This document shows positions 40,685 to 55,175 of a stretch of 64,000 nt of DNA, in pieces. The stretch is from positions 3,216,810 to 3,280,809 of the forward strand of contig OY829373.1 in assembly GCA_963691795.1 (NCBI GenBank). Direction: 5' to 3'. Made by a program: the position numbers and the translations under genes. The notes under the pieces are model-generated. The model saw only the letters and a list, made by a program, of their open reading frames with translations. It did no database searches and was not told the origin of the DNA. The stretch is from Roseovarius sp. Its GTDB lineage: Bacteria; Pseudomonadota; Alphaproteobacteria; Rhodobacterales; Rhodobacteraceae. Each line of letters starts with the position of its first letter. The first letter of the stretch is position 1.

Positions 40685-40702
40685 ATCCACAGTTTATCCA
40701 CA
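40685..40702 (+). promoter_or_regulatory. tandem ATCCACA motifs (ACATCCACA / TTATCCACA) 11 bp apart, upstream of lexA
   Basis: gaacATCCACAGtttATCCACACct read directly. The second motif is a perfect TTATCCACA DnaA box. The spacing is the same as at 1040-1059. Confidence 0.35.
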
Positions 40703-40722
40703 CCTATATTGACACAAAACAA

Positions 40723-40737
40723 GAACATGCGTAGAAC
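40723..40737 (+). promoter_or_regulatory. alphaproteobacterial SOS box GAACATGCGTAGAAC (GAAC-N7-GAAC)
   Basis: Exact direct-repeat match 35 nt upstream of the lexA ATG. It lies between a TTGACA (40709-40714) and overlaps a putative -10 TAGAAC (40732-40737). Confidence 0.7.
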
Positions 40738-40771
40738 AAACGTAAACGTATGGTCTTCGGAGGACGTGTAA

Positions 40772-41473
40772 ATGCTCACGAGAAAGCAACTCGATCTGCT
40801 GGAATTCATCCACAAACGCGTGCAGCGCGACGGTGTGCCGCCCAGCTTTGACGAAATGAAGGACGCGCTGGACCTGCGGTCTAAATCGGGCATTCACAGG
40901 CTGATCACGGCTCTCGAAGAACGTGGCTTCATCAGGCGCCTGGCACATCGGGCGCGCGCGCTCGAGATTGTGAAGCTGCCCGAAAGCCTCGGTGGGGATG
41001 CTACGGCCGGCTTCGTGCCGCGCGTGATTGAAGGTTCAAAGCCTGAGCCTATTCCCGCGCCTTCTGCAGCGCAACCCGTGGAAGCTACGGTGTTCGACAT
41101 TCCCATGATGGGTCGCATCGCGGCTGGTGTACCGATTGAAGCCATTGCAGATGGTAGCCGCAATGTGGCCGTACCGGGAGACATGATCAGCGGACGGGCA
41201 GGACATTATGCTCTTGAGGTAAAAGGCGATTCCATGATCGGGGCCGGCATCAATGACGGCGATGTGGTGGTAATCCGCGAGACGGACGTGGCCGACAATG
41301 GCGATATCGTTGTGGCTCTTGTGGAAGACCAGGAAGCCACCCTGAAGAAATTCTACCGCAACGGCACTGCGATTGCGCTCGAAGCCGCCAATCCGGCCTA
41401 CGAAACCCGTGTCCTGCCCGAAGACAAAGTGCGCGTGCAGGGCCGCCTTGTGGGCCTAATACGGACCTACTAA
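40772..41473 (+). CDS. lexA: LexA repressor
   Basis: N-terminal winged-helix [12 protein letters not shown], cleavage region RIAAGVP, catalytic KGDSM and ATLKKF. Confidence 0.95.
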
Positions 41474-52311: not shown

Positions 52312-53223
52312 CTATTCGGCAGGAATAGCGGCGGTATTGCGGTTGCGTGCCTCGTCCAGCACCAGCCATGATCCAGCCAAAATGACAATCGCCGCACCGA
52401 CATAGACGCCCGGCTCCGGCACCTCGCCAAAGACAGTAAAACCGATCAGGAGCATCCAAAGAAACTGCAAGTTCATTAAAGGCGTTACGACATAGGCCGG
52501 CAACAGGCGTAACGCGGCCACCAGTACCCAGCGGGCCCCGAACAGCACGACCGCATAGACGATCACCAACCCTAGGTCTGCCACGGACATTGGCGTGAAA
52601 ACAAACGGCAGTGCCGATGCCATAATTATCATCAATGCCAGGTTTGGATAGAACAACTGCGACAGGATATTCGCGTCCCTGACACCGATGTAGCGTGACG
52701 CCAGCATAGACACCGTACCAAGCATAACCGCTGCCATGGCCAGACCATGCCCCAGTGAGACTGAACTTAAACCGGTAGGCAAAAGGCACAGCACACCCAC
52801 CGTCCCGAACGCCAATGCCAACCAGACCTGCGGGCGTACATGTTCGCCCAGAATCGGACCAGAGAGCAGCGCCGACACAAGCGGGATCATCGCGATGAAC
52901 ACGAATACCTCGGCAAAGGGAAGCAGACGGAACGCGTAGAAAAAAGCCGCCGTGGCTGCAACAGTGGCCAGCACCCGCACCGTCATAGCCCCTGGACAGG
53001 CTGTGCGCATCCCCTGCCATCGCCCCTCACGGCGATTGGCAATAAGGCTTAGCAGCGCCACGACTCCCCCTGATATCGCATAAAGTTGGGGTGCCGCGTG
53101 GCTTGCGGAAAACAGCTTGGTGATCGCATCGGCTGAGGAAATCAACAGCGTGTAAAGCGCCGTCAGCCCAACGCCGGTCAAGCCAAGGGTGCGCAGGGCG
53201 TGGCGGTCAAACTTGCCGATCAT
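52312..53223 (-). CDS. DMT-superfamily (EamA-like) transporter, third gene of the FTSSM-repeat cassette
   Basis: About 10 hydrophobic segments in two EamA-like halves. Its ATG overlaps the stop of the 376-aa gene (ATATGATC) and is preceded by GGGAG. Confidence 0.85.
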   Translation of the reverse strand: MIGKFDRHALRTLGLTGVGLTALYTLLISSADAITKLFSASHAAPQLYAISGGVVALLSLIANRREGRWQGMRTACPGAMTVRVLATVAATAAFFYAFRLLPFAEVFVFIAMIPLVSALLSGPILGEHVRPQVWLALAFGTVGVLCLLPTGLSSVSLGHGLAMAAVMLGTVSMLASRYIGVRDANILSQLFYPNLALMIIMASALPFVFTPMSVADLGLVIVYAVVLFGARWVLVAALRLLPAYVVTPLMNLQFLWMLLIGFTVFGEVPEPGVYVGAAIVILAGSWLVLDEARNRNTAAIPAE

Positions 53224-54350
53224 ATCATATCTCCCGGCTGCACAGCGCGTGAGAAGCCACGGAAGAACGCCTCAAAATCCACCGCACCCTCGGCCGCCTC
53301 CAGCACACTGCGGGCGTCATCCGACATAGCATCGCCTACGTCATCACGCAGCTCTGCCCAGTTATCACTGCGCCGATCACCCAGCCTGTAGATGCTGTCC
53401 GACAACTCCCGTAGCGGTCCCGCCGGCGCTTGTGGGGCTGAAAAGATTACTGAACCTTCCGGCATGTCCTGCCCGAACCCCCCTGCTCCAGATACTTCCA
53501 TGGACCAGTTGAGCATCAGCCAAGGGTGATAGTCATCCTGCCGCGCCGGGCCGCTGCCCACGGAGATCACGAACCGGCGGACCTGGTCACGCAGCCAGTT
53601 TTCCCAGATGGGCGGCGGTTCGTGACCTGCGAAACGCAAGGCGATGCAGATTTCGGAGAGCAGGTCGATATTGAGTTCCAGGAAAGCCAGCGTGCCAGCA
53701 TAGAAGAGGCTGTTCAGCGTGTCTTGCTCTACCCCCGGGTCAGTGCGACCGTATTCGGAAAGATAAAAGAGGATATGGGTCAGTTCATAGGCGGCCTTCT
53801 TGTTGGGCAGCGCAAAGGTGTCGGAGCGGCTGGTAAAGGTACGCAACCGATCCTCCAAGCCCGTATCCCCGGGCAGCGGATCAACCCCGCGCCGCAGGCA
53901 TAGTCGGCGCGCCTCGGCCCGCTGCAAATCTGACAATTCTGCCCCTATAAGCCCCGTGTGGGCCACCCAGTGGGTGAGCCGCTCACCCTTGACGCCCGGC
54001 ATGCCAAGATCCTCAAGGTCCAGCGAGAGCGCGAGGAAAAACCGGTAGTATTGTGGGAAAAATCCGATCCGTGCTTCCAGATCGTCGTAAAAAACGTCGT
54101 ATACGCTTAGGCCATAGTCATCCGGCATGGCCCCTGTAGCCTCAAACACGTTTAATATTTCGGCATTTTCCTTGAGCCAAAACACATCATCGCGGCCGCG
54201 CCGTGTCTCGGCAAAGCGCTGCATGATAGCGCTTTGCCGGGACGCTTTGGTGCGTTGGCGGAACGGAGTGTTGAGGTGGACGAGAACGCCTTGCGCGCTC
54301 GCCTCGCCTGTCGCGCTATTTTCGTTCCGCCAAAGCATCCCGTGGCTCAC
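53220..54350 (-). CDS. 376-aa protein of unknown family, candidate maturase for the FTSSM-repeat peptide
   Basis: Long ORF with high third-position GC. The GTG start overlaps the stop of the repeat peptide (ATGTGAGC). There is no TM or signal peptide, no Walker A, only two Cys (so no CxxxCxxC), and possible metal-ligand motifs HWVAH, ELTH and DDYH. Confidence 0.8.
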   Translation of the reverse strand: MSHGMLWRNENSATGEASAQGVLVHLNTPFRQRTKASRQSAIMQRFAETRRGRDDVFWLKENAEILNVFEATGAMPDDYGLSVYDVFYDDLEARIGFFPQYYRFFLALSLDLEDLGMPGVKGERLTHWVAHTGLIGAELSDLQRAEARRLCLRRGVDPLPGDTGLEDRLRTFTSRSDTFALPNKKAAYELTHILFYLSEYGRTDPGVEQDTLNSLFYAGTLAFLELNIDLLSEICIALRFAGHEPPPIWENWLRDQVRRFVISVGSGPARQDDYHPWLMLNWSMEVSGAGGFGQDMPEGSVIFSAPQAPAGPLRELSDSIYRLGDRRSDNWAELRDDVGDAMSDDARSVLEAAEGAVDFEAFFRGFSRAVQPGDMI

Positions 54351-54769
54351 ATGCTTGATGTGAACATGTGGCAGCCATCGCCTTCTACCGCAGTAGCAGT
54401 CGTGGCCGGACCCATGGACGAGGTAAACGCCTCGACCGCGTCACCGTCGCGGGTCGACGAGGCCGTGACAGGGCCCATGGACGACGTAAAAAGTTCCACC
54501 GCATCACCCGCAGATGCATCGGACGTAGCCACCGGTGACATGGACGAGGTGAAAAGGCCTGTGACCTCACCCGTCGTGATGTCGCCCGCCGTTACAGGGC
54601 CCATGGACGACGTGAAAAGCTCGGTCGCTTCACCCGTAAGGCCATCACAAAACAGGGTGGGTGCCATGGACGAGGTGAACGCGCCAACCTCGGCGCCATC
54701 GTGCAGGCTGGCCTCGACTTGCGGTGTAGAGTTTTGAATAACTTCCAGTGTTTTGAGTTGTGCAGACAT
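54347..54769 (-). CDS. 140-aa repeat peptide: six 21-aa units each ending in FTSSM (candidate multi-core precursor)
   Basis: ATG 54769 lies 7 nt after GGAG. FTSSM occurs at residues 31-35, 52-56, 73-77, 94-98, 115-119 and 136-140 (the C-terminus). The motif is encoded by differing synonymous codons. There is no signal peptide. Confidence 0.8.
   Translation of the reverse strand: MSAQLKTLEVIQNSTPQVEASLHDGAEVGAFTSSMAPTLFCDGLTGEATELFTSSMGPVTAGDITTGEVTGLFTSSMSPVATSDASAGDAVELFTSSMGPVTASSTRDGDAVEAFTSSMGPATTATAVEGDGCHMFTSSM
54350..54727 (-). repeat. six tandem 63-bp coding repeats
   Basis: The + strand core CATGGACGA(G/C)GT(G/A)AA recurs at 54413, 54476, 54539, 54602 and 54665, with a diverged sixth copy CATGCTTGATGTGAA at 54350. 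The period is exactly 63 nt. Confidence 0.9.
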
Positions 54770-54858
54770 CAGTCTTCTCCGTTAGCAGCCCCCAGTTGGG
54801 CGCTATCGACGGTTACAGCTTTAAGGCGATCTGACAACTAACTTTTCTCGTTTAAGAA

Positions 54859-54957
54859 TTTTCCACAGGGTCAGAGTCGAACCTGTGTCATTTCAATTTT
54901 TTGAATTCAAATTGAGAAATCTCTGCTGCACAGTGCGAAAAAAATTTTATCCACAGG
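54859..54957. promoter_or_regulatory. AT-rich control region motifs: TTTTCCACAGG, inverted CCTGTG, TTTGAATTCAAA palindrome, TTATCCACAGG
   Basis: Read directly: 54859-54869 ttttccacagg, 54882-54887 cctgtg, 54900-54911 tttgaattcaaa, 54947-54957 ttatccacagg. Confidence 0.4.
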
Positions 54958-55175
54958 TCTGGAAATAAAGAGATTTCCCGCAAAAAGAGCAAAATTAGGA
55001 ACGAATCAATCAATGCGAAAGTCAAAATCGCGTCTCTTATCACTCCTCCCTTCGTGGGGCGACAGCGTCTCCCGCGGCTGGCCCTTGCCCTCCTGTCCGG
55101 TCCGGGCGATAGATGAGAGGCGCGCATCCGCCAAACCAAGCGCCTGACCACGCTCAAGACCAAAGGGGATCCATA

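Follow-up and report, generated by a model that had tools for sequence, protein, structure and literature searches.

A window of 64,000 nt of Roseovarius sp. (the whole stretch of DNA that was analysed) was found to carry, on its minus strand, a gene for a protein of the Pfam family DUF6902 between a repeat-peptide gene and the gene of an EamA/DMT transporter. We propose that this protein is the single tailoring enzyme of a three-gene cassette (precursor, DUF6902, EamA) resembling those for peptides that are made by the ribosome and modified after translation (RiPPs), and that it has been passed on vertically as a core locus in the roseobacter group of the Rhodobacteraceae. To this reading as a whole we assign a probability of about 0.45. 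Its central part, that the DUF6902 protein acts on the repeat peptide as a dedicated tailoring enzyme, is judged from sequence to be probably correct. The order of the genes, their conservation, the family of the protein, a fold for which no solved relative was detected and a set of conserved residues were observed directly. The genes of the cassette and the ribosome-binding site of the precursor are as follows.

54777..54780, minus strand: Shine-Dalgarno sequence GGAG, 7 nt upstream of the precursor ATG at 54769
54347..54769, minus strand: multi-core precursor gene, an open reading frame (ORF) of 140 aa with the sequence GCATGTGAGCC
53220..54350, minus strand: DUF6902 protein gene, with its start at GTG 54350 (376 aa) or ATG 54338 (372 aa)
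52312..53223, minus strand: EamA/DMT transporter gene, 303 aa, two EamA repeats (PF00892), with an ATGA overlap with the enzyme gene at 53220-53223

The repeat peptide and its DUF6902 partner

The first-pass annotation had described a 376-aa ORF at 53220-54350 as a protein of no recognisable family. The ORF proved to be real and lies on the minus strand, but the second part of the description did not stand, since the protein matched the DUF6902 profile (PF21843) over its full length, with 478 bits against a cutoff of 27 (E 2e-143; residues 23-369 on profile positions 4-351 of 351). A match to DUF6895 (PF21836) was found as well, with 66 bits against a gathering score of 23.8 (E 4e-18). It covered residues 86-247 and profile positions 68-232 of 289, and with a partial alignment and a score far below that for DUF6902 the protein is not a member of DUF6895. 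By profile match, the window protein thus belongs to DUF6902 and is homologous to DUF6895. The DUF6902 profile was matched by all of the 71 DUF6902 members that were sampled, and the DUF6895 profile by 69 of them (best E 1.4e-22), while no credible match to any further Pfam family was found among the 71. A profile built from the most divergent DUF6902 members retrieved DUF6902 proteins only, and none from DUF6895.

In a collection of 5.8 billion proteins, more than 1,400 homologue clusters were found, nearly all of which belong to Roseovarius or other Rhodobacteraceae and bear the names 'hypothetical' or 'DUF6902 family protein'. An exhaustive HMMER search at 50% clustering gave 164 clusters only, which indicates that the family is small and taxonomically narrow. 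NCBIfam and PADLOC gave zero matches for the enzyme or the precursor, and the PDB sequence search was empty both for the single protein and for the 71-sequence profile; no confident match to a housekeeping family was therefore found in Pfam, NCBIfam or PDB. DUF6902 was also absent from the literature searched, where queries for the motif, the DUFs and roseobacter RiPPs gave nothing relevant.

The precursor of the window begins with a leader, MSAQLK...SLHDG, which is followed by six copies of FTSSM at residues 31-35, 52-56, 73-77, 94-98, 115-119 and 136-140. The period of the motif is exactly 21 aa, and the last copy closes the ORF. The six copies are encoded with synonymous codon differences (TTC/TTT, ACC/ACG/ACA, TCG/TCA and TCC/AGC, the last a serine switch), which shows selection on the peptide sequence and not on a DNA repeat. 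Analysis of 79 precursors, with 532 units and 453 spacings, gave the unit consensus (A/G/S)-P-x(8)-G-(D/E)-(A/G)-(V/T)-(E/G/Q/H)-(M/A/L)-F-(T/S)-(S/T)-(S/G/C)-(L/M/S/A/I). The glycine at -6 was present in 520 of the 532 units and the phenylalanine at position 1 in 514, and the spacing was 21 aa in 305 of the 453 cases, with 3 to more than 15 repeats per precursor. Past the motif, the boundary carries A, G or S at +1 and, in 401 units, proline at +2; the ORF stops directly after the last motif in 75 of the 79 precursors. The core varies in a way that tracks the genus (FTSSM, FTSSL, FTSSI, FTTSL, FSSGS, FSSCS, FTSGL, FTSGS and FTSGA). All 79 precursors have an ATG with GGAG or GGGAG upstream, and their leaders follow the pattern M-x-A-(Q/L)-(R/L)-K...(S/N)LHDG. 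No Pfam or NCBIfam model exists for the precursor; only 4 homologues were found among the 5.8 billion proteins, and the window precursor itself is absent from that collection. The gene is annotated in some NCBI genomes.

Some further features of the precursor were recorded. In precursors of the FTSSM type, the last repeat carries a cysteine at -3 (GDGC(E/H)(M/I)FTSSM), where the other repeats have valine or threonine. This was seen in the window (54350-54412, minus strand) and likewise in loci L001-L014, L022, L031, L032, L038, L040 and L073; the sole other cysteine of the window precursor is residue 41, in the spacer of the second unit. Within Roseovarius nubinhibens, the copy number was 4 units in one strain and at least 9 in another (L090 and L057), so the repeat array expands and contracts quickly. 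A 167-aa antisense ORF at 54234-54737 (plus strand), with GPMDEV-type repeats mirroring those of the precursor, arises only as a side effect of the repeats and might lead gene-calling programs astray.

The linkage of these genes was examined by scanning one genome per species, which gave 527 genomes with a DUF6902 relative; the context statistics are for the best 80 loci from these 527 genomes, those closest to the window protein. In 78 of these 80, a repeat-peptide ORF terminates at the enzyme gene or shortly upstream of it. Homologues in this sample thus almost always have a repeat peptide nearby, and a short, co-oriented precursor gene that adjoins the enzyme gene and is conserved together with it is the arrangement of a RiPP cassette. 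The EamA gene comes next after the enzyme gene in 76 of the 77 loci with enough sequence. The cassette is flanked on one side by a divergent xthA and on the other by a convergent erpA with dgt behind it in 75-76 of the 80 loci, and zero copies were found on PLSDB plasmids. This conserved position and the lack of a plasmid copy mark it as a vertically inherited core locus and not a mobile cluster. One of the 80 loci, L063, comes from a metagenome-assembled genome labelled Granulosicoccus sp.; it has the full cassette, and its xthA, erpA and dgt are 73-80% identical to those of the window. This contig was probably mis-binned and comes from Rhodobacteraceae rather than from a gammaproteobacterium.

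Relatives with 20-30% identity still fall within DUF6902 but have other neighbours. At three divergent loci, a single non-repeat peptide of 57-62 aa is encoded directly upstream, ending in ..VVYDDDKYFAVVK, ..IVYDDDKYFAVMK or ..VICDSDHYCFVVK, and the EamA gene is absent from all three. The peptide ends found beside divergent members were ..VYDDDKYFAV(V/M)K, ..CDSDHYCFVVK and ..ALTSQG. At one divergent locus the peptide has 72 aa, contains NMFTSQG and ends in ALTSQG, and the gene that follows encodes BioY. A Nif11-type leader was considered for these alternative precursors and found no NCBIfam support. In Donghicola sp. XS_ASV15 (L084, 5001-6005), a DUF6902 gene stands at the same xthA/erpA site while the precursor and EamA genes are both gone, and its product has lost K60, E64, R103, E146, Y188, T191, H192, E233, W249, H275 and W282. 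The loss of these residues together with the peptide makes this locus behave like a natural knockout, in that the residues are kept only where a peptide partner exists.

Taken as evidence from context, the locus, the peptide neighbours of divergent members and the decay in Donghicola strongly support a peptide-modifying role for the protein. The proposal of the first-pass annotation that a soluble unknown performs the chemistry of a precursor-enzyme-exporter locus was borne out to this extent by the repeat peptide (78/80), the EamA gene (76/77) and the divergent peptide neighbours. Of the grounds for rejection that the first-pass annotation had named, none that computation could address was found to apply.

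Fold, conserved residues and candidate chemistry

The AlphaFold2 model of the protein, built from a 71-sequence alignment (predicted local distance difference test score 94, predicted template modelling score 0.90) has about 19 helices and two short strands, in agreement with the earlier description of the protein as mostly helical. Foldseek searches of PDB and BFVD with this model gave no match at E <= 1e-3. The best template modelling scores, about 0.25, were to generic alpha-solenoids (ARM/TPR/HEAT) or toroids, and DUF6902, as modelled, has a fold for which no solved structural relative was detected. The residues conserved family-wide are K60, E64, R103, D141, R144, E146, R168, Y188, T191, H192, G201, D229, E233, W249, H275 and W282; about 16 polar residues hardly vary even among members of only 20-25% identity, and S140 is also conserved. 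H192 and H275 are the only family-wide histidines. The conserved set is polar and looks catalytic, and two invariant histidines amid conserved carboxylates and arginines would fit either a two-base acid/base catalyst or a mononuclear 2-His-1-carboxylate site.

Several hallmarks of known maturases had been noted as missing, and a script confirmed this: the protein has only two cysteines (151 and 235) and no CxxxCxxC, no Walker A, no HExxH and no transmembrane segment. It had no Pfam match to radical SAM enzymes, and in Pfam and NCBIfam it matched no YcaO, ATP-grasp, LanKC/LanM or PaaA-like family. Neither the cassette nor its flanks encode a protease, an ATP-dependent enzyme or a radical-SAM enzyme, and the cassette has no redox partner. 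The context of a lasso peptide, with a macrolactam synthetase (C) and a leader peptidase and RiPP recognition element (B), was not found either, the flanks consisting of xthA, erpA, dgt and EamA only, both in the window and in 75-76 of the 80 loci. According to the title of a paper by Shi et al. (ACS Catal 2026, 16:1757; cited in PMC13352647 as ref371, and in PMC13453073), a DUF6895 member is an epimerase of lasso peptides.

From these data we infer that the enzyme acts on the peptide, and likewise a type of reaction, trimming and export. Epimerisation or another redox-neutral reaction is our tentative choice for the chemistry, and our best guess is a cofactor-light acid/base enzyme, possibly an epimerase, that yields a protease-resistant peptide fragment for export. 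The precursor would be translated from its own strong ribosome-binding site, and the enzyme would recognise each G-(D/E)-x-(V/T)-x-(M/A/L)-F-(T/S)-S-(S/G/C)-x unit and modify it by acid/base chemistry of H192 and H275 with the surrounding Asp, Glu, Arg and Lys residues. The modification, for example a D-residue in or next to F-T-S, would make the unit resistant to general peptidases. Housekeeping peptidases would trim the variable spacers and leave one small modified fragment per repeat, six per window precursor, and the co-translated DMT/EamA transporter would export the modified fragment. Such a pathway ties together the epimerase precedent, the only functional one in the superfamily, the lack of an ATP-dependent, radical-SAM, redox or protease partner, and an exporter of the kind used for small solutes.

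Several points weigh against this proposal. We know of no precedent for a DMT transporter exporting a peptide fragment, and no experiment ties any DUF6902 protein to a reaction. The two histidines and the conserved carboxylates suit a mononuclear metal centre equally well, and the context rests on the 80 closest of 527 genome hits. The epimerase precedent is the title of a paper, concerns another Pfam family and is aligned with the window protein over the central 160 residues only.

The first of the other explanations to be weighed, which we consider unlikely, is a metal-dependent oxidase or oxygenase, whose mononuclear 2-His-1-carboxylate or di-metal site would hydroxylate, cross-link or desaturate the Phe, Thr or Ser of FTSS; it widens the idea put forward in the first-pass annotation. 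H192 and H275 are found family-wide together with D229, E233, E146 and D141, and the window protein and its close relatives have an ExxH at 189 and a DxxH at 272. CoiH, a new-fold RiPP oxygenase with no recognisable cofactor motifs, shows that such enzymes exist (bioRxiv 10.64898/2026.08.26.747419). One database submitter named a homologue 'Iron-containing redox enzyme', but the label comes with no visible evidence and NCBIfam gave no match. Among the candidate metal ligands pointed out in the first-pass annotation, the ExxH and the DxxH are present, whereas the histidines of THWVAH (127 and 131) are not conserved. Moreover, E189 (YELTH), D272 (DDYH) and E61 vary in the subfamily with single, non-repeat peptides, so that the family as a whole does not share a di-iron site with six ligands such as ferritin or haem-oxygenase-like proteins have; with its ligand carboxylates varying and two family-wide histidines only, the di-iron helical bundle that had been suggested finds no backing. 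None of the 71 members matched any oxygenase Pfam family, including the haem-oxygenase-like and ferritin-like families, and Foldseek showed no such fold and no similar fold in PDB. The only characterised relative, DUF6895, is by that title an epimerase.

A processing peptidase, cutting at each (L/M/S/A)|(A/G/S)-P through a Ser/His/Asp-type or Glu/His site and freeing peptides of at most 21 residues, seems improbable. Multi-core precursors need cutting and yet no protease gene lies nearby; the boundary past the motif is conserved, the end of the ORF coincides with the end of the motif in 75 of 79 precursors, and S140, H192/H275 and D141/D229 are conserved. However, no likeness to peptidase families was found in Pfam, NCBIfam or PDB, and the peptides beside divergent members have a single copy, so that cleavage between repeats is not called for. 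The reported epimerase activity of the DUF6895 relative, known from the title, also speaks against a peptidase, and a DMT transporter would be an odd partner for 21-mers. Still less probable is a non-catalytic role, in which a cytoplasmic, peptide-binding adaptor or chaperone would pass the repeat peptide or fragments of it on to EamA, or would regulate the transporter. The tight, conserved coupling to EamA (ATGA or GTGA in 67 of 79 loci) would suit it, as would an all-alpha fold with weak structural matches to solenoids (ARM/TPR/HEAT), which are typical of binding scaffolds. Against it, about 16 near-invariant polar residues exceed the usual need of a scaffold, divergent members with no EamA retain both the peptide partner and the conserved residues, and the homologous DUF6895 is an enzyme according to the title of the report. 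The weakest explanation, that the repeat ORF is no substrate but an unrelated or structural neighbour and that the protein acts on a small metabolite moved by EamA, draws on the normal cargo of EamA-type transporters (amino acids and small metabolites) and on the near-absence of the precursor family from databases (4 matches in 5.8 billion sequences), and is highly improbable given the 78/80 linkage, the conserved ATG, ribosome-binding site, leader and motif, the synonymous codon variation, the divergent enzymes that keep a peptide neighbour while losing EamA, and the decay of the enzyme where the peptide is lost.

Gene junctions and upstream region

The transporter is an EamA/DMT member by its two PF00892 stretches and multiple hydrophobic segments, and it is weakly similar to the amino-acid/carboxylate exporters TIGR00950 and YddG. 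In the window, the enzyme stop and the EamA ATG share positions 53220-53223, exactly the ATGA overlap that had been proposed. The two genes overlap in 67 of 79 loci, by ATGA in 43 and by GTGA in 24. Through this overlap the transporter is translationally coupled to the enzyme, and it is a putative exporter of the product.

The junction with the precursor is different. The first-pass annotation had placed the enzyme start at a GTG overlapping the precursor stop. The GTGA is indeed shared with the TGA of the 140-aa ORF, whereas the identical public protein is annotated from ATG 54338 (372 aa), four codons after the GTG and 8 nt past the precursor stop; the exact start codon, GTG 54350 or ATG 54338, is uncertain, and either lies no more than 8 nt from that stop. 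Only about 11 of 79 loci have the enzyme start between -4 and +15 nt relative to the end of the precursor gene, most loci having a spacer of 38-67 nt, and the overlap is limited to the nearest relatives of the window. Expression that is stoichiometric with both neighbours, as had been claimed, is therefore overstated for the precursor, with which the overlap is rarely kept.

A G(G/A)(A/G)ACGG box, typically GCGGAACGG, stands 8-18 nt past the precursor stop in 41 of 78 loci, where shuffled sequences gave about 2; in the lineage of the window most of the spacer has been lost. An attenuator hairpin in this spacer of the orthologues was considered and rejected, as the folding energies were no better than those of shuffled sequences (median z 0.28).

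The region upstream of the cassette is the following.

54770..55112, no strand assigned: AT-rich intergenic region separating the cassette from the divergent xthA, probable promoter/operator region

Two DnaA boxes lie in this region, a perfect one (TTATCCACA) at 54947-54955 (plus strand) and one with a single mismatch at 54859-54867 (plus strand). A DnaA box (TGTGGATAA in the orientation of the operon) was present in 63 of 77 orthologous upstream regions, clustered at about -180 and about -95 from the precursor ATG, and 20 loci have two. An origin of replication (oriC) at these boxes was rejected. The GC skew keeps its sign throughout the window, and the boxes, with no such switch, look like DnaA-dependent regulation rather than oriC. 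A conserved block, (C)TTGGCA(A/G)AAC-N~12-GTGCAAGCGTT, lies 25-70 nt upstream of the precursor ATG (about 54800-54840 in the window, minus strand). Its GCAAGCGT-like core was found in 49 of 77 loci against 1.5 in shuffled sequences, and an arrangement like that for extracytoplasmic function sigma factors, AAC-N16-17-CGTT, in 15 of 77 against 0.9. The TTGGCA block could be a promoter or an element of the 5' untranslated region. Rfam gave no riboswitch or small RNA around the operon. Elsewhere in the window, lexA starts at 40772 (plus strand; feature at 40690-40775) and is preceded by an SOS box of the alphaproteobacterial type, GAAC-N7-GAAC, as well as by a further perfect DnaA box at 40694-40702.

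Relation to known peptide systems and significance

The DUF6895 epimerase is one of the closest known systems, being homologous by profile match. Both DUF6902 and DUF6895 are encoded next to genes for ribosomal peptides, and both therefore plausibly act on peptides. The window cassette differs in having no lasso cyclase or leader peptidase, in a substrate that would be a linear, multi-copy repeat peptide, in the DMT exporter as partner, and in its syntenic core-genome site in Rhodobacteraceae.

Multi-core precursors are known from cyanobactins, fungal dikaritins/ustiloxins, plant orbitides, lyciumins and multi-repeat graspetides, and the yeast alpha-factor is made as a polyprotein. The window precursor resembles the multi-core RiPPs in having a leader followed by several near-identical units, each with a variable spacer and a conserved motif, and in a copy number that varies between strains; as in the yeast alpha-factor, the last unit ends the ORF. 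In contrast, the cassette encodes no YcaO, PatA/G proteases, DUF3328/UstYa, BURP or ATP-grasp protein, and no protease of its own, and the FTSS(L/M) motif matched no described core in the literature searched. By analogy, the logic of the cassette (a leader and multi-core precursor, one enzyme and one exporter) is that of a RiPP pathway with none of the known class-defining enzymes.

Two RiPP enzymes were compared as possible analogues. MslH, a metallophosphoesterase-like epimerase of the lasso peptide MS-271 (PMC10406935), may be a functional analogue as a cofactor-light acid/base epimerase that acts near the precursor C-terminus, and the window motif likewise stands at the C-terminal end of its ORF. 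However, the fold and sequence are unrelated, no PDB entry matching the window protein by sequence or structure, and MslH depends on a metal and targets the final residue of a peptide with one core. CoiH/LanH (LvnF) is a new-fold, sulfoxide-forming enzyme of anti-phage lanthipeptides, with the essential residues D59, N97 and R100 (bioRxiv 10.64898/2026.08.26.747419). The spacing of these residues recalls that of E61, Q100 and R103 in the window protein and offers a tentative lead. The window precursor is almost free of cysteine and no lanthipeptide machinery is present, which makes a reaction of the CoiH type impossible.

A broader reading, which remains speculative and somewhat unlikely, is that the cassette represents a new RiPP class in more than 500 roseobacter-group species with DUF6902 as its class-defining enzyme. 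Each cassette would then make many copies of a small modified peptide, for example with a D-residue, that is exported by the DMT transporter as a conserved signal or public good, and the DnaA boxes may tie their expression to replication status.

Few marine heterotrophs match the Rhodobacteraceae of the roseobacter group in abundance and ecological importance. That hundreds of their species have this cassette fixed at a single site of the chromosome implies that its product, so far undescribed, has a conserved role in physiology or signalling. With no Pfam or NCBIfam model for the precursor and its near-absence from the protein collection, genome mining based on annotation has missed the system. 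If the ribosomal multi-copy peptide is truly paired with a DMT small-solute exporter, this would be an unusual export route. DUF6902 has no characterised member, and its cousin family DUF6895 was given a function only in 2026, as the title of that report has it. Solving the DUF6902 reaction would provide a new tool for RiPP enzymology and an annotation for more than 1,400 clusters now called 'hypothetical'.

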